Of a stretch of DNA of 14,887 nucleotides, positions 1 to 14,887 are shown piece after piece; the first letter of the stretch is position 1; every line of letters begins with the position of its first letter. The stretch is from a virus (lineage: Duplodnaviria > Heunggongvirae > Uroviricota > Caudoviricetes), in the IMG/VR virus record IMGVR_UViG_2617270938_000003, one strand, 5' to 3'. A model generated the notes under the pieces. The model was not told the DNA's origin. It saw nothing but the letters and a program-made list of their open reading frames with translations, and did not search any database. Position numbers and translations under genes: made by a program.

Positions 1-11
1 GGAGCAGCAAA

Positions 12-374
12 ATGGCTAGCGAACGCAGTACTGATGTGCAGGCATTTATCGGGGAGCTGGACGGCGGCGTATTTGAAACCAAAATCGGCGCAGTTCTCAG
101 TGAAGTCGCTTCCGGTGTGATGAACACGAAAACCAAAGGTAAGGTCTCACTCAACCTGGAAATCGAACCATTTGATGAGAACCGTGTGAAAATCAAACAC
201 AAACTCTCATATGTTCGCCCGACTAACCGCGGGAAAATTTCCGAAGAAGACACCACCGAAACGCCGATGTATGTCAATCGCGGTGGTCGCCTGACTATTC
301 TGCAGGAAGACCAGGGACAATTACTGACTCTTGCCGGTGAACCTGACGGAAAACTCCGCGCAGCAGGTCATTAA
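12..374 (+). CDS. yfdP: Prophage early-region protein, YfdP-like (120 aa)
   Basis: ATG at 12 preceded by GGAG at 1-4. Length of 120 aa and position immediately upstream of a 274-aa and an HD-domain ~175-aa ORF reproduce the yfdP-yfdQ-yfdR order and sizes of E. coli CPS-53/KplE1 as I recall them. Symbol rests on that recollection, not a search. Confidence 0.5.
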   Translation: MASERSTDVQAFIGELDGGVFETKIGAVLSEVASGVMNTKTKGKVSLNLEIEPFDENRVKIKHKLSYVRPTNRGKISEEDTTETPMYVNRGGRLTILQEDQGQLLTLAGEPDGKLRAAGH

Positions 375-439
375 TATCGTTCTTAATTAACTGATTATTT
401 ATCTCATCACTGAATATCTTTATATAGTGAGGACTTATT

Positions 440-1264
440 ATGTCTCAGAACTTAGACGCAACCGCAATTAATCAAATCCATGCCCTTATTTCTGCTCAGG
501 GTGTTAATGAAATTATCAGTAAGATTGGTGCCGATGCTGTGGCATTGCCTGAGAATTTCCGCATTCATGATCTGGAAAAATTTAATTTAAATCGCTTCCG
601 TTTCCGTGGTGCGCTTTCCACTGCCAGCATCGATGACTTTACCCGTTATTCTAAAGATCTTGCGGATGAAGGCACCCGCTGCTTTATCGATGCCGATAAT
701 ATGCGTGCCGTCAGTGTGCTTAACCTAGGTACTATTGATGAGCCTGGTCACGCAGATAACACCGCCACTCTCAAACTGAAAAAGACAGCACCGTTCTCTG
801 CTCTGTTGTCTGTTAACGGCGAGCGTAACTCCCAGAAGTCACTGGCAGAATGGATTGAAGACTGGGCCGACTACCTTGTGGGCTTTGATGCTAATGGTGA
901 TGCCATTCAGGCAACAAAAGCGGCTGCGGCAGTCCGTAAAATCACGATTGAAGCAAACCAGACCGCTGATTTTGAAGACAATGACTTCAGCGGCAAACGC
1001 TCCCTGATGGAGTCTGTCGAAGCGAAGACCAAAGATATTATGCCAGTGGCATTTGAATTTAAATGCGTTCCGTTTGAAGGCCTGAAAGAACGTCCGTTTA
1101 AATTACGCCTCAGCATTATCACTGGCGATCGTCCTGTACTGGTTCTGCGCATTATTCAGCTGGAAGCAGTGCAGGAAGAAATGGCTAACGAATTTCGTGA
1201 TCTGCTTGTTGAGAAATTCAAGGACAGCAAAGTAGAAACCTTTATTGGTACTTTTACCGCCTGA
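440..1264 (+). CDS. yfdQ: Prophage protein, YfdQ-like (DUF2303-type), 274 aa
   Basis: ATG at 440 with GAGGA about 7 nt upstream. Uninterrupted 274-aa ORF with host-like codon usage; size and synteny match YfdQ between YfdP and YfdR. No catalytic motif recognised. Confidence 0.55.
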
Positions 1265-1276
1265 TTTCATTACTGC

Positions 1277-1298
1277 AAATGCCCCTGCGGGGGCATTT
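1277..1298 (+). terminator. GC-rich hairpin downstream of the yfdQ-like gene, possible weak terminator or RNA stability element
   Basis: Perfect 9-bp inverted repeat AAATGCCCC / GGGGCATTT around a 4-nt loop, 13 nt after the stop codon. Only a short T tract (TTT) follows, so intrinsic-terminator strength is uncertain. Confidence 0.3.
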
Positions 1299-1391
1299 AT
1301 GGAAACGTAATTGACTCAATAATCGCCGGATGGTGAGGGCTTTCTTTTACCAGAATTCAGCGCGGTGCAGCGCATATACGTGGAGAACAAA

Positions 1392-1916
1392 ATGTCATTT
1401 ATTAAAACTTTTTCCGGGAAGCATTTTTATTATGACAGGATAAATAAAGACGACATCGTTATTAACGATATCGCGGTTTCTCTTTCAAATATCTGTCGCT
1501 TTGCAGGACATCTTTCACATTTCTACAGCGTCGCCCAACATGCGGTGCTTTGCAGCCAACTGGTACCGCAGGAATTTGCTTTTGAAGCGTTAATGCATGA
1601 TGCAACAGAAGCGTATTGCCAGGACATCCCGGCGCCACTGAAACGCCTTCTTCCTGACTATAAACGGATGGAAGAAAAAATAGACGCCGTAATCCGTGAG
1701 AAATACGGGTTACCCCCGGTTATGAGTACGCCCGTGAAATATGCCGATCTCATCATGCTGGCAACCGAACGCCGCGATCTCGGGCTTGATGATGGCTCTT
1801 TCTGGCCCGTACTGGAAGGTATCCCGGCAACAGAGATGTTCAAAGTTATTCCACTGTCGCCAGGCCATACCTATGGGATGTTTATGGAACGCTTTAAAGA
1901 GTTAACTGAGTCGTAA
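1392..1916 (+). CDS. yfdR: HD-domain phosphohydrolase, YfdR-like (5'-deoxynucleotidase family)
   Basis: ATG at 1392 with GGAG 6 nt upstream; the track ORF begins at GTG 1365, and GTG 1380 would give 178 aa. The protein carries an H...HD metal-binding signature (AQHAVL ... LMHDATEAY) typical of HD hydrolases, and follows the yfdQ-like gene. Confidence 0.6.
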   Translation: MSFIKTFSGKHFYYDRINKDDIVINDIAVSLSNICRFAGHLSHFYSVAQHAVLCSQLVPQEFAFEALMHDATEAYCQDIPAPLKRLLPDYKRMEEKIDAVIREKYGLPPVMSTPVKYADLIMLATERRDLGLDDGSFWPVLEGIPATEMFKVIPLSPGHTYGMFMERFKELTES

Positions 1917-2024
1917 AAATCAGCACGTACGAATTCAAACTCTGCCATAAAAGAACATATAAGTAATTTATTAACATATAGATATAGGTTATATTACAAA
2001 TTGAAAAATTATTGGAGAGCAACA

Positions 2025-2891
2025 ATGAATCAAAATCCATTCTCATTCTATGACTTTCTTGGATATTTAATACCAGGTGGTTTTTTTATCCTATTAATGT
2101 ATTTCTGTGGTTTGACATTCGATCTAGATATTGTTATTGACTTAAGTGAATTGCTCAGAGGTCAAAGTCAAATCTTTGGCATTTTGAACTACGCTTCAAT
2201 AGTTATTATATCTTATATAGCTGGACATTTTATTTCTATCACGTCAGCATTTTTTATCGAAAAATACATGAATAAAGAATTAGGATATCCTTCCAAATAT
2301 CTATTTAAAAAATTGATAGATACCTCAGAAAGCATTTGTAGCCCATCCTGCGATGAGAGAAGCGCTGATAAAAAAACAAAAATAAAGAATCGCATAATCA
2401 AATGCGTATTATGTCCAATAATACTATGGGATTTTATAACACAAAAACTATGTTATTCTCAATCTCTACCATTTCATTTAGCTAATACAACATGGTTAAT
2501 GATCAAAGAAGGTTATGAGAAAAAGTTCATAACAAATCGCCAATTATTACAAGATAAAAACGGACTTGATGATGATCTCTTCAGATTGGCATATCATTAT
2601 GTTTATGAGTTTTCAAAACAACATCAAACAAAAATTCAAAACTATGTTGCATTATATGGTTTTTGCAGAAACATATGTTTAATCTTTATAATTTCATTTT
2701 GGGTATCAGTTCCAACCTTTATTTATCGATTATGTACTCATAGTGATTATCTTTATAGTTTACTTTCAATAATGCTTAGCTTTTTCTTCGTCTATGTTTT
2801 CTATGTTGGTTTTGTTAAATTTTATAGAAGATATACTTTAGAAGTATTAATGGCATTTGCTGTACTTCAAAGTAACGACATTATTCGTTAA
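2025..2891 (+). CDS. AT-rich polytopic inner-membrane protein of unknown function (prophage moron candidate)
   Basis: ATG at 2025 with GGAGA 6 nt upstream; the track ORF starts at TTG 2001. About four to five hydrophobic helices (e.g. FFILLMYFCGL, IVIISYIAGHFISITSAFFI, ICLIFIISFWVSVPTFIY, LSIMLSFFFVYVFYVGFV) flank a charged central segment. Codon usage is markedly more AT-rich than the flanking yfdR-like and xis/int genes. Confidence 0.6.
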   Translation: MNQNPFSFYDFLGYLIPGGFFILLMYFCGLTFDLDIVIDLSELLRGQSQIFGILNYASIVIISYIAGHFISITSAFFIEKYMNKELGYPSKYLFKKLIDTSESICSPSCDERSADKKTKIKNRIIKCVLCPIILWDFITQKLCYSQSLPFHLANTTWLMIKEGYEKKFITNRQLLQDKNGLDDDLFRLAYHYVYEFSKQHQTKIQNYVALYGFCRNICLIFIISFWVSVPTFIYRLCTHSDYLYSLLSIMLSFFFVYVFYVGFVKFYRRYTLEVLMAFAVLQSNDIIR

Positions 2892-2932
2892 TAATGTTGC
2901 TCCCGTGTGCAGACGGGATAATGGAGAAACGT

Positions 2933-3139
2933 ATGCTGAACCTCGATTGTGTTCCTATCTCAACTTATTGCAAAGAAACTGGCGAAACTCCTGAAGCAAT
3001 AAACAAACGTGTACAGCGCGGTGTTTGGCGTGAAGGTGTTCAGGTTTTAAAGGTTGAAGGCGTTAAGGAGAGGTGGATTGATCTTAGTGAGGTTGCAAAA
3101 TGGGCCAGACAAAACTGCTCAAACTACCGCGCGGCGTAA
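2933..3139 (+). CDS. Putative excisionase / small DNA-binding recombination directionality factor
   Basis: Small basic ORF directly upstream of, and overlapping by 40 nt, a tyrosine integrase gene. ATG at 2933 has GGAGA 5 nt upstream; alternative starts at 2894 and 2921. The W/R-rich C-terminal half (RGVWREGVQVLKVEGVKERWIDLSEVAKWAR) looks like Xis-type winged-helix proteins. Assignment is from position and composition, not a confirmed match. Confidence 0.5.
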   Translation: MLNLDCVPISTYCKETGETPEAINKRVQRGVWREGVQVLKVEGVKERWIDLSEVAKWARQNCSNYRAA

Positions 3140-4272
3140 CAATCAGGAAACACCGCCAGGGAGAAACGATCAATATAACTTTCACCTACAAAGGAGTTAG
3201 ATGTCGTGAGCCGCTTTCCAATCTGGAAGTAACACCAAAGAACATTAAATACGCCGAGCGTACACTCGGCGAAATCCATAATAAGATCGAAAGGGGAACA
3301 TTCATTTATGCAGAATATTTTCCCCGTTCTGCTCGTTTGAAAATTTTTGGTAATGCTGCTGCAGGCAAAACGGTAAAGATGTACCTGGACGAATATCTTG
3401 AAATCTGCGAAACAAGAAAACTTTCACCCTCTACGATTGGTGGCTATAAAAAATGCCGTAGTGCGTTAGCCTCACTTCACATTTGCCCTGCAAGTGAATT
3501 AACACCAGCAACCCTGAAAGCGTGGATTCAAAGCCAGAAAACAACCTTAAAAACCATTCGCAACCAGTTATCTTTCCTACGGTCAGCACTTGATGAAGCC
3601 GTGACCGATGGGGTACTTCAAATTAACCCCGTATCGTTAGTAACAGCTTCGCGCTACCAAAGTGATAAGTCAGAAGCAGAAAGCAGCTATGTGGTTGATC
3701 CGCTATCACCAGCAGAAGTTGATGCATTACTAGCAGCAGCCGGAAACAAACAATGGGAAAATCTGTTCCGGTTCGCCATACATACAGGCCTGCGTAGTTC
3801 TGAATTATGTGCCCTACGATGGCATGATATCGACTTTGTTGGAAAAACAGCCCATGTTCAGAGCGCAAGTGTTGTCGGAGTTATCAAAGGAACAAAGACA
3901 AAAGCCGGTACCCGTAAAGTTGAACTGACTGAAGAAGCAATGTTGGCGTTGATAAACCAGAAGCCATTTACATTCATGAAGGATGCTACTGTCTTTGAAG
4001 ATCCAAAGACCAATAAACCCTGGGCAAGTGCTGATGCAATTAGGAAAAAAGCATGGGTGCCAACATTGCGAAAAGCAGGTATTCGTTACAGAAACCCATA
4101 TCAAACCAGGCATACATTCGCCCCCAGCCATATCAGCCGGGGAGCAAACCTGTTTTGGCTTGCGGCTCAAATGGGCCATAAAGGGCCTGAAATGTTATTC
4201 AGGCACTATGGACAATACTTGAAAGAGTATGATGGGAGGGCAAGTATCAAGGATAAAAAGGCTTTATTTTAA
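3100..4272 (+). CDS. Phage tyrosine integrase (site-specific recombinase, lambda-Int superfamily)
   Basis: 390-aa ORF with GAGG 8 nt upstream. C-terminal catalytic signature of tyrosine recombinases is present: TGLRSSEL (box I Arg), HxxR in NPYQTRHTFA, and the nucleophile region GHKGPEMLFRHYGQY. The N-terminus resembles arm-binding domains. Confidence 0.85.
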   Translation: MGQTKLLKLPRGVTIRKHRQGETINITFTYKGVRCREPLSNLEVTPKNIKYAERTLGEIHNKIERGTFIYAEYFPRSARLKIFGNAAAGKTVKMYLDEYLEICETRKLSPSTIGGYKKCRSALASLHICPASELTPATLKAWIQSQKTTLKTIRNQLSFLRSALDEAVTDGVLQINPVSLVTASRYQSDKSEAESSYVVDPLSPAEVDALLAAAGNKQWENLFRFAIHTGLRSSELCALRWHDIDFVGKTAHVQSASVVGVIKGTKTKAGTRKVELTEEAMLALINQKPFTFMKDATVFEDPKTNKPWASADAIRKKAWVPTLRKAGIRYRNPYQTRHTFAPSHISRGANLFWLAAQMGHKGPEMLFRHYGQYLKEYDGRASIKDKKALF

Positions 4273-4881
4273 GTCATTATGCCAATCGTCTACTGTTTGA
4301 AACCAAATTTTTAACCTTTGCATAAAGGTACGATCCTTTTTGGGAGGATGGTACCTTTGAAAAGAAGTATGTAACGCTTCGATAACTCCCATACAAGCAT
4401 CAATTACTTCTTGTGCTTTAACCGGGCGATCGGCATCTGAAAGCTTGTGAGCGACCTCACAATCCAGAGTTGCTTTCTCTAGTACAGATGAGAACACCTC
4501 GTCAGGTATATACAGTCCTCTGCTTTCCAAAATGCAAATCAGTTTGGAAACTTGTTGAGCTTTAGCCAAGATAGTTAACAAGTATGAAACAGAAGCCTTT
4601 GTTCTATCCTTTTGCAACCTTAACAATCGATGCTTTGATGCTCTAATTTTAGGTTGAGTTGTCTGACTGAGCCAATAGTTAGAAGAAATATCAGAAATTT
4701 CAATAACTAACTTTGAAATAGCATCAATAATTGATTTCGATTCAGAACGTGTCGCCAGTTTTACAGAATTATTGTACGCAACTCGCCATCCAATGAAAAC
4801 TAAGCAGACGCTAACTACTGTGATACACCACGAATACTGTCCTATTTGTGCTACTAATGACATTGGTTCCGTACTGATCAA
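4264..4881 (-). CDS. Single-pass membrane protein, third gene of a GHKL-ATPase/STAS-like operon
   Basis: One N-terminal transmembrane helix (YSWCITVVSVCLVFIGW) followed by a soluble domain of about 170 aa. Probable TTG start at 4881 with AAGAGG 6 nt upstream (ATG alternative at 4863). A 10-nt gap separates it from the upstream gene; its 3' end overlaps the integrase stop convergently. Confidence 0.55.
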   Translation of the reverse strand: MISTEPMSLVAQIGQYSWCITVVSVCLVFIGWRVAYNNSVKLATRSESKSIIDAISKLVIEISDISSNYWLSQTTQPKIRASKHRLLRLQKDRTKASVSYLLTILAKAQQVSKLICILESRGLYIPDEVFSSVLEKATLDCEVAHKLSDADRPVKAQEVIDACMGVIEALHTSFQRYHPPKKDRTFMQRLKIWFQTVDDWHNDLK

Positions 4882-4891
4882 CTATCGCCTC

Positions 4892-5218
4892 TTATACTCT
4901 TTCTGGTTGTGCTAAATCAATAAATTTATCAATCTGTTCTTTGTAGAACGGAACATCACTTTTTATAATCAAACGTGCTTTAACGTTGGCTTTAGGTATC
5001 CCTTCCTTACGGATGAGACCTCCAAACGCCTCTTCTAAGAAAGAGGAACCAACACCCAGTGCTATACCGCGAAAATCAACCACAATCTCCTGTTCAGTAC
5101 CCTTCAGCGCAGGCACCAAAAACTCTCTACGAAATCTTTCCGCACTGTGTGGGCTATCCGTTGTGTAACGTCCGAAAGGTGTTCTGGAGAACTCCTTCGC
5201 TATGACGATATTTCTCAT
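4892..5218 (-). CDS. Small STAS-like (anti-sigma-antagonist-like, DUF4325-type) protein
   Basis: 108-aa ORF; ATG at 5218 with AGGAGA 7 nt upstream, lying inside the end of the upstream GHKL gene. The motif VVDFRGIALGVGSSFLEEAFGGL resembles the STAS/DUF4325 core. Fold assignment is from motif resemblance only. Confidence 0.55.
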   Translation of the reverse strand: MRNIVIAKEFSRTPFGRYTTDSPHSAERFRREFLVPALKGTEQEIVVDFRGIALGVGSSFLEEAFGGLIRKEGIPKANVKARLIIKSDVPFYKEQIDKFIDLAQPERV

Positions 5219-5222
5219 AAAA

Positions 5223-6134
5223 TCATCTCCTGGGAACCAGCGACCATTGTAGTAAAGTACCCGGTATGTACTCAGCTAGCTTCTCACATCGAGGACTACT
5301 GTCATTAGAATTATAGCTATAACGAGCCCTTCCTGTTAGTATCAGAAGTGTCTCATTATCCTCACAACCTGCCCCAATAGGTCTCTTGATATCTTCAGAG
5401 CCATTTCCCCGTCCGGAACCAACAAAGCGGGATTCCCCTACTAACATAGCTCTTTCCACAGAAGATACTTCGTTTTGAATGCTATGACCATCACCATTAG
5501 GCACGAAACTTCTATAAATCCCCAATCCAAGGTCACAAACGATAAAAACGACTTTATTTTCATCACGATTGAACCAAGCGCACTGCCACCATCGTTTACC
5601 TTTGAGAAGCTGAATATCTGACTCGAACCCCTCATCTTCATACGCATGATGAGAAACATTGAGCAAAGCTTCACTAATCGCTGTCAGCAGTAAGCCTAAC
5701 TGTTCATTATTAAGCAGAGCACTTTTCTGCAGCATGAGTACTGTTTCAACAATATGCTCGTAAGGTTCGACAGCTGACTGAAAGTATCGTTCCTCCCTCG
5801 TAAGTGCATTCAGTTTCTCTTCTGTGCCAGCAAGCAAAGCACGAGCAAGTCCAGTACCAACGATCCATCTATGCCCAGATGGGTTATCATCCTTTTTAGG
5901 CCATTTAAAACGTATAAAATTAGGGTCCCGGGTTAAAAATTGAGCTCTATTTACTATGGCAAAGAACAGTACCGATGCCGCAGCTGAGGCAAATTTTACC
6001 TTGGACAAATCAACTATAACTCGACCTTTATTTTTTACTCCAATCGATTCAATCGAGTTGATGAAGTTCAATGTCCCAGCCCTAGAATCATCTGAGTAAA
6101 TGCAAAATTTGCTTGGGGGTACCAGTATGGTCAT
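5223..6134 (-). CDS. GHKL-superfamily (HATPase_c) ATPase/kinase-like protein with N-terminal extension
   Basis: 303-aa ORF. All three Bergerat-fold motifs were read directly from the minus strand: N-box EALLNVSHHAY (5640-5672), G1 box DLGLG (5520-5534) and G2 box GSGRGNG (5400-5420). Residues 40-56 (VDLSKVKFASAAASVLF) resemble the STAS phospho-acceptor region. No strong SD at the ATG. Confidence 0.7.
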   Translation of the reverse strand: MTILVPPSKFCIYSDDSRAGTLNFINSIESIGVKNKGRVIVDLSKVKFASAAASVLFFAIVNRAQFLTRDPNFIRFKWPKKDDNPSGHRWIVGTGLARALLAGTEEKLNALTREERYFQSAVEPYEHIVETVLMLQKSALLNNEQLGLLLTAISEALLNVSHHAYEDEGFESDIQLLKGKRWWQCAWFNRDENKVVFIVCDLGLGIYRSFVPNGDGHSIQNEVSSVERAMLVGESRFVGSGRGNGSEDIKRPIGAGCEDNETLLILTGRARYSYNSNDSSPRCEKLAEYIPGTLLQWSLVPRR

Positions 6135-6286
6135 AGCGATGTCATTCTTATACGATGGATTTATAGATTATCTACTATTCATAGTTGGTTATGAAGACTG
6201 GGATATAACAGTAAAAGATACGTGTAAGATCCGCAAGATAGTTAATGTCGAAAAAAATCATTAATTACATCAAGTTAGTGATATTT

Positions 6287-6318
6287 GGACTCGGGTTCAA
6301 CTCCCGCCAGCTCCACCA
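6287..6318 (+). other. att core: copy of the 3' end of tmRNA (ssrA) without the rest of the gene
   Basis: GGACTCGGGTTCAACTCCCGCCAGCTCCACCA. The last 27 nt are identical to the 3' end (T-arm, acceptor stem, CCA) of E. coli tmRNA as I recall it; similarity decays upstream. The ~345 nt of tmRNA that should precede it are absent, since that space is intergenic and a protein-coding gene. Confidence 0.75.
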
Positions 6319-6352
6319 AATATTGATGTACTGAAGTTCAGTAAAGTCTACT

Positions 6353-6387
6353 AAGCCCGCACAGCACAAGCTCTGCGGGCTTTTTTA
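6353..6387 (+). terminator. Rho-independent terminator downstream of the tmRNA 3'-end copy
   Basis: Stem AAGCCCGCA / TGCGGGCTT (9 bp) with a 12-nt loop, immediately followed by TTTTTT at 6381-6386. Confidence 0.6.
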
Positions 6388-6484
6388 CGTCTATTGTAGT
6401 CTAGTGAGAATTGCTGAGAACTACGAGTTATGGCACCCTGAATGGGACCCACGAAGATGGGTCCTAAAATCGAGGGTCCCAAAC

Positions 6485-7714
6485 ATGGCCAAAATCGCTA
6501 AGAAGCTCACTGACACTGAAATCAAAAGCACCAAACCTGCCGAAAAAGAGGTTAACCTTTTTGACGGCGATGGTTTGCTGTTGCGAATCGCTCCCCTGGC
6601 GAAGGGAGGGAAGAAAAATTGGTATTTCAGATATGCAGTGCCTGTGACCAAAAAGCGAACTAAGGTGAGCTTAGGAACCTATCCTCACCTTACACTTGCG
6701 AAGGCACGAGCTTTACGTGATGAATACTTGTCGTTGCTTACAAATGGTATAGACCCCCAAGTTCATAACAACCAAAAAGCCAATGCACTGAAAGATGCCA
6801 CGGAACATACATTTCAAGCAGTAGCCAAGAAGTGGCTTGATGAGAAAGTCAAAACGTCAGGCATCTCCCAAGATCATGCTAACGACATCTGGCGAAGCCT
6901 AGAGAGAAATATCTTTTCCACATTGGGTGATACCCCAATTAAGGAGATTCGCCCTAAAATGCTTAAACAGCATTTAGAACCCATAGAAAAACGAGGTGTC
7001 CTTGAAACACTTCGCCGCATCATATCCCGCCTGAATGAAATTTTCCGCTATGCAGCAACAGAAGAACTCATAGAATTCAACCCGGCAGACAACCTGGGGC
7101 AACGGTTCAGCAAGCCAAAAAAACAGAATATGCCAGCATTACCCCCTTCCGAACTCCCTCGCTTCTTGGTTGCTCTAAACAATGCTTCTATCCGTTTGGA
7201 AACAAGGCTACTGATTGAGTGGCAACTTCTCACATGGGTTCGCCCAGGTGAAGCTGTTCGCACAAGATGGTCAGATATTGATATTGAAACTGGCATGTGG
7301 AACATCCCGGCGGAGTTTATGAAAATGAAGAAGCCTCACAAAGTTCCACTGAGCAAAGAAGCTTTGCGAGTTTTGGATTTAATGAAAGTCATCAGCGGGC
7401 ATAGAGAGTGGGTGTTCCCCAGTATCAAAGCTCCACTCAATCACATGCATGAACAAACAGCTAATGCGGCCATAATCCGTATGGGTTTCGGAGGTGAGCT
7501 TGTAGCTCACGGTATGCGATCCATTGCTAGAACGGCTGCTGAGGAGTCTGGCAAGTTTAGGACTGATGTCTTAGAAGCCGCCCTTGCCCACTCGAAGAAA
7601 GATGAAATAATTGCAGCCTACAATCGTGCAGAGTATCTCACTGAACGGGTGGTTCTCATGCAATGGTGGAGTGACTATGTTTCGTCTCAAAAATGCAAAG
7701 TTATTGCCGCATAA
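6485..7714 (+). CDS. intA: P4-type tyrosine integrase, IntA-like (CP4-57 family), tmRNA-associated
   Basis: From ATG 6485 (GAGGG upstream) the protein MAKIAKKLTDTEIKSTKP...NLFDGDGLLLRIAP...WYFRY...TKKRTKVSLGTYP aligns along its length with E. coli IntA as recalled (LTDTEIK, DGDGL, DIWRSLER, ALETLRR, KKNMP, MQWW). It sits immediately 3' of an ssrA 3'-end sequence as in E. coli. The track ORF starts at GTG 6404. Confidence 0.85.
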   Translation: MAKIAKKLTDTEIKSTKPAEKEVNLFDGDGLLLRIAPLAKGGKKNWYFRYAVPVTKKRTKVSLGTYPHLTLAKARALRDEYLSLLTNGIDPQVHNNQKANALKDATEHTFQAVAKKWLDEKVKTSGISQDHANDIWRSLERNIFSTLGDTPIKEIRPKMLKQHLEPIEKRGVLETLRRIISRLNEIFRYAATEELIEFNPADNLGQRFSKPKKQNMPALPPSELPRFLVALNNASIRLETRLLIEWQLLTWVRPGEAVRTRWSDIDIETGMWNIPAEFMKMKKPHKVPLSKEALRVLDLMKVISGHREWVFPSIKAPLNHMHEQTANAAIIRMGFGGELVAHGMRSIARTAAEESGKFRTDVLEAALAHSKKDEIIAAYNRAEYLTERVVLMQWWSDYVSSQKCKVIAA

Positions 7715-7776
7715 CTCTCCCATGATGGATTAACTATCTTGATTTAGTTAAAGAATTAATAATCACACCATTAACC

Positions 7777-7826
7777 TATGTGGACTAAGCATAGCCATTT
7801 ACAAATGGGGACATTGAGTCCACATA
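7777..7826. repeat. 50-bp two-fold symmetric site (nested inverted repeats around a central AC dinucleotide)
   Basis: TATGTGGACT-aagcatag-CCATTT-AC-AAATGG-ggacattg-AGTCCACATA. Outer 10-bp arms are perfect reverse complements, as are the inner 6-bp arms; both share the same centre (7801/7802). It lies in the intA / serine-recombinase intergenic region, about 170 bp upstream of the recombinase start. Confidence 0.6.
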
Positions 7827-7996
7827 ACGAAAGCTGTCGGTCATATCAGCTAAATAATTCACATCTCTTCTCGATTATCATACACCTCGAAGATCTACCA
7901 AATTCGCTCTAATCAATGATAAAACAGTTGAATTCGGTTAAAATTTGATCAATTTTATCCTCTACATTGTATTGAATCACCCATGAGGTTTCGTGC

Positions 7997-9553
7997 ATGG
8001 CTAGCGAAAATGACAAAAATCATAGAGTTAGGGTCGCGCAGTACTTGAGGATGTCTACCGACCATCAGCAATATTCTTTACATAATCAGTCCGAATATAT
8101 CAAAGATTATGCTGAAAAGAACAATATGGAAATCGCTTATACCTACGATGATGCAGGTAAGAGCGGAGTCAGTATCGTAGGCAGGCATTCTTTGCAGCAG
8201 TTACTTAGCGATGTAGAACAAAAGAAAATAGATATACAGGCTGTATTATTTTATGATGTGAGCCGTTTTGGTCGTTTTCAAAATAGTGATGAAGCGGCAT
8301 ATTATTCCTTTCTATTTGAGAGAAATGGTGTAGATCTTATATATTGTTCCGAACCTATACCCACTAAAGATTTCCCTTTAGAGTCCTCTGTTATACTGAA
8401 TATAAAAAGATCTAGTGCTGCATATCACAGCAGGAATTTATCTGAAAAGGTATTTATAGGGCAAGTAAATTTAATAAAGCTTGGTTATCATCAAGGCGGT
8501 ATGGCTGGTTATGGGCTGAGACGTCTTTTAGTAGACGAAAATGGCATAGCTAAAGAAATATTGAGTTTCCGCAAAAGAAAGAGTATTCAAACAGATAGGG
8601 TAATATTAATTCCGGGACCAAAAAATGAAATAAAAATTGTAAATAGAATATATGATCTCTTTATAGATAATAACGTCCCAGAATTCATTATTGCTGAGAG
8701 ATTAAATGAACAGAACATACCTGCAGAAAATGGAACATTATGGACTCGTGCAAAAATACATCAAATTTTGACAAATGAAAAATATATTGGAAACAACATA
8801 TATAACAAAACCTCATCTAAATTAAAAAGTAGGCTTGTAAAAAACCCCAAACATGAATGGGTTAGATGTGACAAGGCATATAAACCTATTATTTCAAAGA
8901 AAAAATACAATAAAGCTCAAGAAATAATTCAGCTCCGATCCATTCATTTGACTAATGAAGATCTATTAGAAAAACTAAAACAAAAATTAGAATCTAATGG
9001 AAAACTATCAGGCTTTATCATTGATGAAGATGATACAGGCCCTTCATCTTCTGTTTATAGAACCCGATTTGGTGGTCTTTTAAGAGCATATACTTTGATT
9101 GGTTATAAGCCAGAACATGATTACAGCTATCTCAAAATAAATGAAGCACTAAGATCATTTCACTCAGAGATAATTGAGGATTTTAAGGGTGAAATTTTAA
9201 AAAGTAACTGTCATATAGACGAGTATAAATATGCCCCAATGCTTTACATCAATGATGAGTTTTTAATTTCCATCCTTGTTACTAAATGCATACATATGAA
9301 ATCAGGTAAACTTAGATGGAAAGTCCGGTTTGATAACTCACAGAAAGCAGACATAACAATTGTTATACGAATGAATTCACAAAATATTTCACCTCTTGAT
9401 TTTTATATCATACCAAAGATTGAAAACGAATATAATAAAATGTGTATGACGGAAACAAACAACATTCGATTAGATCTCTATAGATTTGATAATCTTGATA
9501 AACTTCTACAAATTATTACTCGCATGAAAGTGAGGGAACTATATGCTGCCTGA
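7997..9553 (+). CDS. Large serine recombinase (resolvase/invertase catalytic domain plus recombinase domain)
   Basis: N-terminus RVAQYLRMSTDHQ matches the serine-recombinase active-site motif (YxRxSTxxQ, nucleophile about Ser20, codon near 8054). Resolvase-like block ...DDAGKSGVSIVGRHSLQQLL...VLFYDVSRFGR and recombinase-domain-like block GYHQGGMAGYGLRR...LWTRAKIHQILTNEKYIGN follow. No classical CxxC zinc-ribbon seen in the C-terminal third. GAGG 8 nt upstream of ATG; very AT-rich. Confidence 0.8.
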   Translation: MASENDKNHRVRVAQYLRMSTDHQQYSLHNQSEYIKDYAEKNNMEIAYTYDDAGKSGVSIVGRHSLQQLLSDVEQKKIDIQAVLFYDVSRFGRFQNSDEAAYYSFLFERNGVDLIYCSEPIPTKDFPLESSVILNIKRSSAAYHSRNLSEKVFIGQVNLIKLGYHQGGMAGYGLRRLLVDENGIAKEILSFRKRKSIQTDRVILIPGPKNEIKIVNRIYDLFIDNNVPEFIIAERLNEQNIPAENGTLWTRAKIHQILTNEKYIGNNIYNKTSSKLKSRLVKNPKHEWVRCDKAYKPIISKKKYNKAQEIIQLRSIHLTNEDLLEKLKQKLESNGKLSGFIIDEDDTGPSSSVYRTRFGGLLRAYTLIGYKPEHDYSYLKINEALRSFHSEIIEDFKGEILKSNCHIDEYKYAPMLYINDEFLISILVTKCIHMKSGKLRWKVRFDNSQKADITIVIRMNSQNISPLDFYIIPKIENEYNKMCMTETNNIRLDLYRFDNLDKLLQIITRMKVRELYAA

Positions 9554-10439
9554 AAAAAATGAATTCCCAATAATTCAAATTGAGATTGCAAAAATAAAAT
9601 TTCTTAACCCACGAACAAGAAATAAGTTAGTGCATGAAGAAATAAAGGAAAGCATAAAAAAAAGAGGATTAAGCAAGCCTATAAGCGTAAGAGCTATTGA
9701 TGAAGGCGATTTCAAATATGCTTTAATTTGTGGTCAAGGGAGAATAGAGGCTCTCGTTGCATTAGGTGAAACTATTATTCCAGCAATTATAAGAGATGTA
9801 TCAGAAGAAGATGCTTACGTTATGAGTTTAGTTGAAAACATTGCAAGGAGAAGACCACGTTCTAATGAGTTATTACAGGTGATTAAAGACATGAAAATCA
9901 GAGGACTTTCAGACTCCGAAATAAGTGAGATTACTGGATATTCATCGAACTGGGTGAGCAGTATTAATATGCTACTTGATAAGGGAGAGCATAAACTTCT
10001 CTCAGCAGTCGAACGGGGTAATTTGCCTCTGTATCTCGCAGTGCAATTTGCAAGATGTGAAACTGAGGAAGCACAAGATATTCTTACCGAAGCATATGAT
10101 AAAAAATTAATAAAAAGTCGGGACATTATAAAGATAAAACACATTCTAAATCAAAGAACAGTTGGGAATAAAGGTGCAAAAGCAGCCGGATTTTATTATC
10201 ACAAACCATCAAAAAGGATGACTGCAGAGGAGTTGATTGAGCTTTATGAAAATAGTATCGCTGAACATAAATCTGTTTATAACAACTCAAAATTCATAAA
10301 AACCAACCTACTAATAGTAAATGAGATTTTTAACATCATAATGATGAATAAAAGCTTTCAACATATACTTGAACAAGAGAATCTTTCAGAACTACCATCT
10401 CAGATATTAACCCCAGTAAACAAAGAGGTATTAAAATGA
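9543..10439 (+). CDS. ParB/Srx-fold protein with HTH (ParB-like N-terminal domain), 298 aa
   Basis: Collinear with the chromosomal ParB N-terminal domain: ...NPR..., GQGRIEA at 9732-9752 (ParB GERRxRA-type arginine motif), IPAIIRDVSEEDAYVMSLVENIARR (ParB box ENLQR-like), then an HTH-like LSDSEISEITGYSSNWVSS. Start overlaps the recombinase stop by 11 nt, with GAGGGA 6 nt upstream. Confidence 0.75.
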   Translation: MLPEKNEFPIIQIEIAKIKFLNPRTRNKLVHEEIKESIKKRGLSKPISVRAIDEGDFKYALICGQGRIEALVALGETIIPAIIRDVSEEDAYVMSLVENIARRRPRSNELLQVIKDMKIRGLSDSEISEITGYSSNWVSSINMLLDKGEHKLLSAVERGNLPLYLAVQFARCETEEAQDILTEAYDKKLIKSRDIIKIKHILNQRTVGNKGAKAAGFYYHKPSKRMTAEELIELYENSIAEHKSVYNNSKFIKTNLLIVNEIFNIIMMNKSFQHILEQENLSELPSQILTPVNKEVLK

Positions 10440-11332
10440 TTCAGATACGTTTTGGCGATAATTTTATTTACCTGGAAACTAATAAGTTAATTCCATCTAA
10501 GGAATTATTAGAAAACGTAAAGCGAAGCCATAAATATCATCAAATAGTTACCTCTATCGAAAGCTTAGGTATTATTGAACCAATAATAGTATTCTATGAC
10601 AAAGATAAAGATGTCACTAAGATACTTGATGGCCATTTAAGGGTTGAGGCTTTAAAAGACTTAGGTATAGAAAAAGCTCCATGTATACTTTCGAGCATAG
10701 ATGATGCTTTCACTCCTAACAAACAAGTGAATCATATAAATGTAGTTGAAGAACATAGAATGATAATTAAGTCTCTGGCAAAAGTATCAATTGAAAAACT
10801 TAGTGCTGCTTTGGGCATATCTGTTGATGCCATAAAAGATAAAGCGAATGTGATGAACGGCATAGATCCAAGTGTAATTGCGAAACTTTCTGATAAACCT
10901 ATACCTAAGGCTACATTTGACGTTTTGAGGAAAATGAAGCCAATTCGCCAAATTGAAGCAGTCGGTACAATGATTAATTTTGATAATTATAGTAAAAAAT
11001 TTGCAATGAGCATCTTGGATGCAACACCGGCATCGATGATAGTAAATAAAGGGAAAAACACTCCCTATAAAAAGGATATAAAAAAAACCATACTTCGTCT
11101 GGAACAAGAAATGGCAACAACTTCGGAAGAAACGAAAAAGCTTCAAACCGAGTATGGTTCAGATATGTTGAAATTCGTTATAATCCAGTCATATATTAAT
11201 AAATTACTTGGCAATTCTAAAGTTCTTCATTGGTTCTTAGAAAACGAGGTTGATTATCTTAATGAGTTAAAAAGAATTTCTAGAATAAATTCTTTGGATG
11301 ATAAGACTCTTACTGAAAACAGCAAGTCATAG
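10436..11332 (+). CDS. Second ParB/Srx-fold protein, divergent paralogue-like, 298 aa
   Basis: N-terminal segment IIEPIIVFYDKDKDVTKILDGHLRVEALKDLGIEKAPCIL (DGHLRVEA at 10628-10651) has the ParB/Srx arrangement of a beta-strand, Gly/Arg motif and hydrophobic helix. ATGA start/stop overlap with the upstream gene, AGAGG SD. Same length as its neighbour. Confidence 0.6.
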   Translation: MIQIRFGDNFIYLETNKLIPSKELLENVKRSHKYHQIVTSIESLGIIEPIIVFYDKDKDVTKILDGHLRVEALKDLGIEKAPCILSSIDDAFTPNKQVNHINVVEEHRMIIKSLAKVSIEKLSAALGISVDAIKDKANVMNGIDPSVIAKLSDKPIPKATFDVLRKMKPIRQIEAVGTMINFDNYSKKFAMSILDATPASMIVNKGKNTPYKKDIKKTILRLEQEMATTSEETKKLQTEYGSDMLKFVIIQSYINKLLGNSKVLHWFLENEVDYLNELKRISRINSLDDKTLTENSKS

Positions 11333-12560
11333 TCATGTTTTATATAGCCTAAATAAACCAAGAAGTATACTTACACAACGACCTTCACGCCGAAGAAGCT
11401 GTCAGATACGCCAGCAACCAAAGCATTACGTTTAAGTGTCAGTCATTGATACGAAGGGATAACTGCGTATCAGCAGCCGGACATTGAGTCGAATAAAGGC
11501 TGGTAGAGAGGGACAGTTCTGTGTCACCGGGAGATTCGTCAGAAACATCAGCGGCAGAACAGATGAACCAGCAATTGGTAGTGCACAGAAAACTCTCCAG
11601 TATTTAATTATTCAACTTAACACTAAAAAAAATCACATATTTAATATCATAATTTTTCTTTGGTCTACGTATGCGAGAGTTATTGTGGCTTTAACCGGGT
11701 ATTAGGAGTCGTTTCAGATAAAAGATGTTCTTCGATTCGACTGGACTTGGTAATAGCAATAAGTAATCGTTAATATTGAAGGACGAAAGGCTACTTCAAA
11801 ACAAAGTAACCTTTCCAATATTCCCATCTATGGGACAAGTGGTACATTAACTGCACATAGTGCAGGATACATATGACATAAAACTTTTTATTTATGGCAT
11901 ACATTATAAATAACTTGTATTTTATGAATGTCAATAGGTTCTTGTTTAATACTTTTAAAATAATTAATTGATTGTTTTTATTATAGCTTCGCTTGTACAA
12001 GCGAAGATCCTATTGTTCTTGAATGAATAATGCCAATTATAAGAGAAGCAAGGGCTAACTCTGCGAAGCCGCTGCGCTTGCTTCTTCGAGTTCCCCTTGC
12101 TTTTCTGCCCTTCGGTTAGAAAAGAAGCCAAACTGCTACCAACCTTGAATCTCTATATTTTTGAATAGACAAACATTACCCGCTCCCTTAATCACCACTA
12201 TCAAACATAAAAAATCATCTTACAAATAACCCCATACACATCATTTTAGATTGCGACCTTATTAAATTAAAAATTCAACCTTAGATGGAATTTAATGTAC
12301 AAGGAGTGTCCTACTGTAACGGAGAATTTTAAACATTAAAAATTACAACTATGGTTTGTCATAGCCTGTACATCTATTCACCTCATGCATATGCACTAAG
12401 AAAGCTTTTTTGAATACTGGAGTTGTCCCTGCTAAAACGGACACGGCTAATTAACTGCTAATATGGCATCACGATATTCGCGTGGCGATTTCATGTTCAA
12501 CCCCTTGTGTGGATGCAGATTATTATAATCCTCTATCTATTCTGCCATTGTTTCCATCAT

Positions 12561-12767
12561 TTAGACTGCATCCAGCAGATCATCTACGTACACATAATCC
12601 CGCTTGAACGTCTTTACAAACGATTCTGCCATGCCGTTACTTCCCGGACTGCGTACTGGTGTAGTACACACGATGAACCACAGTGAACTAGCGAATGTGC
12701 GCGTGGCATCGGCTGTGCAGCAATTATGCCAATGACACTGGCTCCATTGACGGCAATGACCTGACAT
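12561..12767 (-). pseudogene. Remnant of an IS3-family (IS2-group) transposase orfB
   Basis: Translation ...TRTFASSLWFIVCTTPVRSPGSNGMAESFVKTFKRDYV matches the DDE-glutamate region of IS2 InsD (...[38 protein letters not shown]...) as recalled. The reading frame is only 68 codons, with neither the N-terminal catalytic region nor the normal C-terminus intact. Confidence 0.6.
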
Positions 12768-12927
12768 CTACAATCCCGCTACAAAGCATTTACTCCATGA
12801 GTCATTGCACTTGCTGAGCTACACGAACACACTAAAACCAGATAATAATTAATCGCTGTATAAGCTCGTAACAAGCGGAACTTTAAGGCAAAATAGGGCC
12901 ATCTTCCACCTTCACAAAGTTACGCTA

Positions 12928-14475
12928 ATGGCCAGAAAACCTAAAGAAATCAAAACAGACCCGTTAGAGGTCATCCTGTGGAAAGCGGCTGACAAGCTAC
13001 GTAAGAACATTGATGCAGCCGAGTACAAGCATGTCGTGCTGGGCCTGATTTTCCTTAAGTATATTTCTGATTCTTTTGAATCTCATTATGAGTTGCTGAA
13101 GGCTGGTGAAGGCGAGTTCGCAGGCGCTGACCCGGAAGATAGAGACGAGTACACCGCTTACAACATTTTCTTTGTCCCTGAGCTTGCACGCTGGAACTAT
13201 CTAATATCTAAGGCAAAGCTACCCGAAATCGGTAAGCTGGTTGATGATGCTATGGAGCTTATCGAAGCGGGTAACCCACAGCTAAAAGGTGCGCTGCCGA
13301 AAGTCTACGCTCGCCAGAACCTCGACGCAACTGTGCTGGGTGAACTGATAGATCTGATTGGCAACATTGCACTGGGAGATGCCAAAGCGCGTTCTGCTGA
13401 TGTATTAGGCCACGTATTCGAATACTTCCTTGGTGAATTTGCACTGGCAGAAGGCAAACAGGGCGGTCAGTTCTATACGCCAAAATCCATCGTAAGCCTG
13501 CTGGTTAACATGCTGGAACCCTATAAAGGCCGAGTCTTTGACCCTTGCTGCGGTTCCGGTGGTATGTTCGTTCAGTCAGAAAAATTTGTTGAAGCGCATC
13601 AGGGAAATATTGACGATATTTCGATTTACGGTCAGGAATCCAACCAGACCACCTGGCGTCTGGCAAAAATGAACCTGGCTATCCGGGGTATCAATTCAGA
13701 ACACGTCCGCTGGAACAGTGAAGGCTCATTCCTTAACGATGCCCACAAAGATCTAAAATCTGATTTTATCATTGCCAATCCACCGTTTAACGTGTCTGAC
13801 TGGTCCGGTGAGCAGCTTCGTGGCGATGCCCGTTGGCAATACGGTATCCCACCTACCGGGAATGCTAACTTTGCCTGGATGCAGCATTTTCTGTATCACC
13901 TGTCGCCAAAAGGTCAGGCTGGTGTTGTACTGGCAAAAGGGGCTTTAACATCTAAAAGTTCTGGTGAAGGTGATATCCGTGCCGCACTGGTAAAAGATGC
14001 CAATGTGATTGACTGTATCGTAAATTTACCTGCAAAACTGTTCCTGAACACCCAGATCCCTGCGGCGTTATGGTTTATGCGTCGTGATCGTGAAAATAGC
14101 AGCCAATATCGTGATCGCAGTAAAGAAATTCTGTTTATTGATGCCCGGAATTTAGGCCATTTAATTAATCGTCGAACCAAAGTCCTGTCTGACTACGATA
14201 TTAAAACCATAGCCGATACCTACCATAACTGGCGTAACAAAGGTGGCGACTACGAAGACGTCGCTGGTTTCTGTGCGTCAGTAGACATTGCTGAAGTTGC
14301 TAAACTCGATTATGTGCTGACACCTGGCCGTTATGTTGGTCTTGCTGATGAAGAAGACGATTTCGACTTTAAAGAACGCTTTACGGCTCTTAAAGCTGAG
14401 TTTGAAGCGCAACTGGAAGAAGAGGCGCGTCTGAACAGAGCCATCGTTGATAATCTGGCGAAGGTGGTTTTATGA
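12928..14475 (+). CDS. hsdM: Type I restriction-modification system DNA methyltransferase subunit HsdM
   Basis: 515-aa ORF with the N6-adenine methyltransferase motifs: AdoMet-binding motif [13 protein letters not shown] and catalytic motif IV NPPF ([12 protein letters not shown]). Typical HsdM N-terminal helical region and acidic coiled C-terminus; stop overlaps the next gene's ATG (ATGA). Confidence 0.9.
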
Positions 14476-14518
14476 GTAGGTGGAGAAATTTTTGTATAAC
14501 TGAATTAGCAGATTTTTG
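14472..14518 (+). pseudogene. hsdS: 5' stub of hsdS (type I specificity subunit) truncated by IS1 insertion
   Basis: ATG at 14472 overlaps the hsdM stop, with AAGGTGG SD upstream. It encodes [16 protein letters not shown] and then runs straight into the IS1 terminal sequence at 14519, hitting a stop seven codons later. Confidence 0.6.
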
Positions 14519-14887
14519 GGTAATGACTCCAACTTATTGATAGTGTTTTATGTTCAGATAATGCCCGATGACTTTGTCATGCAGCTCCACCGATTTTGAG
14601 AACGACAGCGACTTCCGTCCCAGCCGTGCCAGGTGCTGCCTCAGATTCAGGTTATGCCGCTCAATTCGCTGCGTATATCGCTTGCTGATTACGTGCAGCT
14701 TTCCCTTCAGGCGGGATTCATACAGCGGCCAGCCATCCGTCATCCATATCACCACGTCAAAGGGTGACAGCAGGCTCATAAGACGCCCCAGCGTCGCCAT
14801 AGTGCGCTCACCGAATACGTGCGCAACAACCGTCTTCCGGAGACTGTCATACGCGTAAAACAGCCAGCGCTGGCGCGATTTAGCCCC
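14519..14887 (-). mobile_element. IS1 insertion sequence (partial; continues beyond window end)
   Basis: Begins with the characteristic IS1 terminal sequence GGTAATGACTCCAACTTATTGATAGTGTTTTATGTTCAGATAATG. The following DNA is the reverse complement of the insB end of IS1; the encoded protein ends ...[23 protein letters not shown], as in IS1 InsB. Confidence 0.9.
14534..14887 (-). CDS. insB: IS1 transposase InsB / InsAB' C-terminal portion (5' part lies beyond the window)
   Basis: Minus-strand frame encodes ...[88 protein letters not shown]. The frame stays open upstream to the window edge. Confidence 0.85.

Follow-up and report, generated by a model that had tools for sequence, protein, structure and literature searches.

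When a type I restriction-modification locus breaks off at an insertion sequence a few codons into its specificity gene, two questions arise: whether what is left can function, and whether the missing part has been displaced by the element or removed. Such a locus lies at the right-hand end of the 14,887-nt stretch of DNA analysed here (‘the window’). Exact-protein look-up with HsdM identified the window as the entire contig JNMO01000094.1 of assembly GCA_000700385.1, a short-read contig that breaks off 369 nt into a multicopy IS1. Because this end is an assembly break in a repeat, content beyond position 14887 supports no conclusion. Judged by sequence comparison, the window carries the left part of an Escherichia coli integrative island bearing the hsd locus; the features of this part are collected in Table 1.

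Table 1. Features of the hsd island in the window, with the basis of each assignment.
Feature	Position	Strand	Basis
Left part of ssrA-type integrative island	6286..11332	+	Pfam of called genes, identity to PapRG-04-4
att copy	about 6286-6317		copy of ssrA 3′ end
Integrase of hsd island	6485-7714	+	Pfam
Serine recombinase (large)	7997-9553	+	Pfam
ParB-like genes, two	9543-10439 and 10436-11332	+	Pfam
AT-rich spacer, second parB-like gene to hsdM	11333..12927	.	ORF, GC and Rfam scans
IS3-family transposase fragment (pseudogene)	about 12412..12723	-	nucleotide identity, weak Pfam
hsdM, type I methyltransferase subunit, intact, 515 aa	12928..14475	+	single ORF
hsdS 5′ remnant, 47 nt (15 codons + 2 nt)	14472..14518	+	identity to PapRG-04-4 hsdS
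Hybrid ORF, 22 codons, hsdS remnant into IS1 end	14472..14540	+	translation
IS1 right end, 369 nt, ended by contig edge	14519..14887	-	inverted repeat, nucleotide identity, Pfam

Positions 6276–14518 were 99.9% identical to an island adjoining ssrA in E. coli PapRG-04-4, which comprises an integrase, a large serine recombinase, two ParB-like genes, an AT-rich spacer with an IS3-family pseudogene, hsdM, hsdS, hsdR and a decayed IS1. At window 6286–6317 the last ~31 nt of ssrA are duplicated, with one mismatch, between two integrase-bearing elements. The first of these (positions 1–6275) carries yfdP/Q/R-like genes and an integrase at 3100–4272, and the hsd island begins at about 6276. In other strains the hsd island directly adjoins ssrA, and the arrangement of positions 1–7714 resembles islands arrayed in tandem where ssrA provides the attachment site. 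Between both integrases lies a minus-strand module of three genes (4264–6134; products of 205 aa, 108 aa with a DUF4325/STAS-like domain, and 303 aa), to which a PADLOC scan returned no match; nor were other defence systems found by that scan among the neighbouring genes. The ParB/RepB-like pair at 9543–11332, 3′ of the large serine recombinase, consists of adjacent genes, both of 298 aa, the second of which gave a weak PADLOC match to a type II methyltransferase model via its ParB_N-like N-terminus. Rfam and tRNA/tmRNA scans of the window produced no matches.

The first-pass annotation, made from the sequence alone, had regarded the DNA upstream of hsdM, AT-rich and with nothing but a transposase fragment, as part of the picture of a decayed locus. 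The description holds: GC content in the spacer is 0.33–0.47, there is no ORF >73 aa and no Rfam match between 11333 and 12927, and the fragment is 86% identical in nucleotides to a transposase annotated as IS3-family, with a weak rve_3 match. As a sign of decay it fails, since the same spacer and IS3-family fragment are also found in strains with an intact M-S-R system. The annotation of PapRG-04-4 (locus L001) and of loci L020–L022 lists the equivalent fragment as a pseudogene for an ‘integrase core domain-containing protein’, and the AT-rich spacer upstream of hsdM in TUM9812 (L020) contains two more IS3-family elements.

That hsdM is intact, as had been proposed, was borne out: the gene is a single ORF whose product carries the HsdM_N (PF12161, 2.5e-24) and N6_Mtase (PF02384, 1e-106) domains and the SAM-binding and catalytic motifs (DPCCGSGG, residue 205; NPPF, residue 284), as expected of a type I M subunit, and matches the PADLOC MTase_I model at 2.9e-188. 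It is identical at 514/515 residues to the HsdM of complete M-S-R loci, the sole difference being V122A. On the NCBIfam hsdM equivalog TIGR00497 it scores 179.3 bits, below the cut-off of 242.75. By Pfam, PADLOC and context, then, the protein is a type I M subunit of a subfamily distant from the TIGR00497 model. The type I families IA–IE are defined by subunit exchange (PMC12707154), and the system shares its three-subunit architecture with EcoR124I/EcoprrI (type IC) and EcoKI (type IA). Its HsdM has a match of 5e-40 to the M subunit of EcoR124II, covering part of the protein, and one of 1e-17 to that of EcoKI; the best solved relative is 3khk, an archaeal M subunit. Domain content makes this a type I restriction-modification system, with an HsdM that is distant from the classical-family models.

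The start of hsdS was likewise as first described, its ATG at 14472 overlapping the hsdM stop as ATGA, and so was the break at about codon 16. Through position 14518 (...GCAGATTTTTG) the window is the same as the intact hsdS of PapRG-04-4 (L001, from 10773), and it diverges from there on: past nt 47 the intact gene reads CAACGCACAAAG, whereas the window reads GGTAATGACTCCAACTTATTGAT, an exact copy of the 23-nt IS1 right inverted repeat, at 14519–14541. Codon 16 is TGC (Cys) in intact hsdS and TGG in the window, the third base being supplied by IS1. The intact allele encodes 383 aa with PF01420; the 47 nt kept in the window hold neither of two target-recognition domains. The IS1 segment shows 99.2–99.5% identity over its 369 nt to annotated IS1A copies in L002, and its minus-strand partial product of 117 aa, the C-terminal part of the transposase, carries DDE_Tnp_IS1 (PF03400). 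It is the right inverted repeat (IRR) end that faces hsdM. Matches to the segment number in the thousands across plasmids and genomes.

The junction is not peculiar to one contig. Among the matches listed, the identical hsdS–IS1 junction was present in 10/10 assemblies with the exact window HsdM, the contigs each ending 26–369 nt into IS1. These comprise NCBI isolates, ENA metagenome assemblies and Logan assemblies of SRA runs, with MEGAHIT k141 assemblies and metagenome scaffolds among them. One Logan contig (L009, from SRR1186721) agrees with window 2928–14544 save for one mismatch. They were retrieved by exact HsdM match, from which the intactness of hsdM in them follows. Altogether the window-type junction was seen on at least 17–24 contigs, and in two upstream contexts, either directly beside ssrA or, as in the window, behind a second integrative element. 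A chimeric hsdS–IS1 join at the contig end, hsdS being really intact in the strain, can hardly be entertained: the contig does end in a multicopy repeat, where misjoins can occur, but the same junction recurs in ten independent assemblies from different assemblers and is linked to the lineage-specific substitution V122A. Being identical across independent assemblies, the junction is real and marks a lineage, rather than reflecting misassembly.

Among complete E. coli genomes the junction was found in 0/5,426, whether queried with 2.2 kb or with 111 nt of junction sequence. Species-representative genomes and JGI metagenomes were scanned for two exact patterns, the left junction as observed and the right junction that a simple insertion would create; the four scans gave 0 matches and are uninformative, as the known junction is itself absent from both collections. 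No assembly spanning the whole IS1 at the junction occurred in the 5,426 complete genomes or in either scanned collection. One junction contig (L011, sample ERR13952266) has an IS1 right end at either side (1–27 and 6467–6492). The gene called first on it, for the serine recombinase, is incomplete, and the contig may start at another IS1 that lies within this gene or immediately ahead of it.

What should lie beyond the junction can be read from related loci. The order hsdM-hsdS-hsdR followed by IS1 was found in PapRG-04-4, N1718, WL164, ET745, TUM9812, CEA601S and 19AR1724. The hsdR gene is thus expected downstream, past the contig end, and its absence upstream of hsdM, earlier counted as decay, has no such meaning. 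That the window contains no hsdR is true but equally uninformative, the contig ending inside IS1 before the position at which relatives carry the gene. The relatives' HsdR has HSDR_N, ResIII/SWI2_SNF2 and T1RH-like_C domains and scores above the TIGR00348 cut-off, with only a weak match to the HsdR of EcoR124I. About 45 nt 3′ of hsdR the relatives carry a copy of IS1 whose transposase, like that in the window, is encoded on the minus strand. The copy found in the closest complete relatives is decayed and 96.7% identical to the window IS1.

The nearest intact loci are those of TUM9812, CEA601S and 19AR1724, which have a near-identical allele with all three hsd genes intact (HsdM WP_032343002.1, HsdS WP_032343003.1, HsdR WP_033548215.1). 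The window HsdM is one residue apart from theirs, and shared features are the IS3-family fragment, the AT-rich spacer and the hsdM–hsdS overlap in ATGA; identity from the island att copy to hsdS nt 47, measured against PapRG-04-4, is 99.9%. In these strains a full 383-aa HsdS and a 1079-aa HsdR precede the decayed IS1; in the window, IS1 follows hsdS nt 47 immediately. In TUM9812 the decayed IS1 adjoins a truncated ypjA, at a place where other relatives have an ankyrin-repeat gene, a sign that a further rearrangement next to an IS has taken place on the right of that locus (the TUM9812 observations, the extra spacer elements included, fall in L020 2838–5844 and 12768–14754). PapRG-04-4, the closest complete relative, has intact hsdM and hsdS, but its hsdR (L001 11983–15222) is annotated as a pseudogene because of an internal stop, so that the same system has decayed there by an independent route; hsdS, hsdR and the decayed IS1 of this strain are covered by L001 10773–15300.

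Two origins of the junction have to be weighed, and an IS1-associated deletion of the hsdS remainder and hsdR is considered the probable one. In relatives the island encodes a complete hsdM-hsdS-hsdR operon followed by an old, decayed IS1 copy, and in the window lineage the junction after hsdS nt 47 would be the edge of the deletion. This could have arisen in one step, as a replicative ‘adjacent deletion’ from an IS1 resident 3′ of hsdR, or by insertion of IS1 into hsdS followed by recombination with a downstream IS1. By either route the remaining hsdS and hsdR would be removed and a solitary, intact hsdM left. As their products are identical, the two routes are indistinguishable.

The other origin, implied when the locus was first described as restorable by excision, is a simple insertion: a 768-bp IS1 in codon 16 of hsdS, flanked by a target duplication of 8–9 bp, with the hsdS remainder and an intact hsdR on another contig. 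It is possible, but on balance rather unlikely. It is the commonest outcome of IS1 movement and would take a single step from what the closest complete relatives carry; the hsdS sequence at the junction is an A/T-rich run (AGATTTTTG), and A/T-rich targets are typical of IS1. Moreover, in another lineage (L016) an independent IS1 end lies 33 nt upstream, with the remainder of hsdS retained.

A simple insertion makes a prediction that can be looked for in the same assemblies. Each should contain a contig of ~4.6 kb running from an IS1 left end through the duplication, hsdS nt 48 onward and hsdR to IS1, and with a 9-bp duplication the IS1 left end should be joined to ...AGATTTTTGCAACGC. The hsdS remainder would be expected to yield a product of 358 aa from M26, one of 361 or 375 aa from a TTG further upstream, or one that begins at the contig edge. 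A search with intact HsdS of the protein collection from the same assemblies recovered no N-truncated product starting at codons 13–26 except one (P0023), and the clusters contained no partner of 358–378 aa among the matches listed. Thus no hsdS remainder starting near codon 16–26 was found for the assemblies of at least 17–24 junction contigs, a negative result that derives from database gene calls. The exception, which has the M26 start, occurs on two contigs only and belongs to the other lineage. On one (L016 1–200) it follows a different IS1 event, with an IRR end against hsdS nt 14 in the opposite orientation to the window, and the other contig simply begins at hsdS nt 19. These contigs act as a positive control, since they demonstrate that such an hsdS remainder does assemble and that its product is on record, in that lineage and not in the lineage of the window.

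The orientation of the window IS1 is that of the IS1 3′ of hsdR in relatives. A deletion requires this match, which an insertion would give half of the time, so that it counts as evidence at only two to one. A resident element of the appropriate kind is on record: 3′ of hsdR in L016 (4608–4900), the decayed IS1 is interrupted at its nt 155 by a nested standard IS1 of the same orientation, 100% identical to the window IS1 over 138 nt. Judged by its sequence and position, this nested copy is rightly oriented to start such a deletion. Against a deletion stands the fact that the window contig stops inside IS1, leaving the far IS1 end outside the sequence. In addition, the closest complete relatives have the decayed IS1 variant only, so that a deletion needs an extra prior step, the arrival of a standard IS1 downstream; in complete genomes, the best matches listed carry a single decayed IS1 only, without IS1-in-IS1 nesting.

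A further line of evidence comes from strains in which a comparable junction is resolved. In the complete genome of W13-16, hsdS is cut at about nt 754 and followed by IS1 and unrelated DNA, hsdR being absent; in that of ETEC4068, hsdM is cut at about nt 1454 and followed by IS1 and the backbone gene glaH. Both resolved complete-genome cases of IS1 against a truncated hsd gene in the window orientation are therefore deletions. Like the window, both strains have a same-orientation IS1 directly against the truncated gene, and the downstream hsd genes are missing from them; they differ from it in having an IS1 variant 91.5% identical to that of the window, other breakpoints and an island allele of 98% identity. 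Between the two strains the island is 99.99% identical and the 768-nt IS1 100% identical, while the flanks differ on both sides, just as adjacent deletions occurring one after another would leave them. IS activity commonly gives rise to such deletions, and they are not accompanied by a target duplication (PMC11708052).

The production of replicative adjacent deletions by IS1 is known from classical work, in the gal region of E. coli K-12. In those deletions the IS is kept, the DNA between the resident IS end and the new target is lost, and there is no target duplication; unlike them, the window shows the near IS1 end only. Taking these lines together, we infer that the lineage has lost the hsdS remainder and hsdR, and that they have not simply been shifted by 768 bp. 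The suggestion of a simple insertion with an hsdS remainder that excision could restore is accordingly doubtful, there being no remainder on record for the lineage and the resolved comparable cases being deletions.

IS1 has affected this locus more than once. Across strains, at least five distinct IS1 junctions were observed, at hsdS nt 47, nt 14, codon 378 and about nt 754, and at hsdM about nt 1454 (junction coordinates L016 1–200, L018 9480–9560 and L015 9640–9720). At codon 378, the left end of IS1 is fused to hsdS in a protein (P0009) ending ...AEEAGDAANLLI. The hsd locus is, on these alignments, a recurrent IS1 target. It was also considered whether a single event, such as an inversion or a composite element, could account for the junctions of both the window and L016, and this was rejected: both are right-inverted-repeat ends, and a single event would leave the two sharing 34 bp of hsdS (nt 14–47), an overlap that does not arise by IS1 transposition. 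In a replicative inversion, unlike the window, hsdS nt 1–47 would be joined to the left inverted repeat.

For function, the choice between deletion and insertion makes little difference. In type I enzymes, M2S1 is the form that methylates and R2M2S1 the form that restricts, R being inactive outside the full complex (PMC12707154). The claim that, lacking HsdS, HsdM forms no sequence-specific methyltransferase thus agrees with established type I biology, and extends to the R2M2S1 nuclease (PMC12707154). As 15 codons of HsdS are left, no target-recognition domain can come from this hsdS, and neither methylation nor restriction is expected; the system lacks its specificity subunit and, judged from what is encoded, should be inactive under deletion and insertion alike. 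An insertion would inactivate it through lost translation of HsdS and could in principle be reverted by precise excision. Such reversion would be rare under an insertion and impossible under a deletion.

A mobile element interrupting a type I hsdS has a parallel in EcoDXXI (type IC), where, as cited in PMC12707154, both EcoDXXI::Tn5 and a truncated HsdS gain a new, palindromic specificity. Those mutants, as described there, keep the N-terminal target-recognition domain and the central conserved region and can dimerise, whereas the window keeps 15 codons. With 15 codons only, a functional half-HsdS is impossible and the EcoDXXI precedent does not apply.

The solitary HsdM might instead pair in trans with the HsdS of a same-family type I locus elsewhere, an explanation that would fit either origin of the junction and that we regard as highly improbable. 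Subunit exchange is the very property by which type I families are defined (PMC12707154), and hsdM is undamaged in every junction contig; however, that observation follows from retrieval by the exact protein, and the junction may simply be recent. It is likewise highly improbable that hsdM has been kept because it is working, whether with an HsdS partner in trans or as an orphan subunit with a regulatory or anti-restriction role.

An IS1-truncated type I locus is ordinary decay of a defence locus, known in kind. It adds one more case of insertion sequences eroding such a locus in an E. coli genomic island and matters little beyond annotation. For annotation, a gene missing at a contig end inside a repeat is no evidence of its loss, and hsdR can be called absent only once it is known in which order the particular type I family arranges its genes. 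For the bacteria themselves, strains of this lineage are probably without one restriction barrier and one methylation motif.
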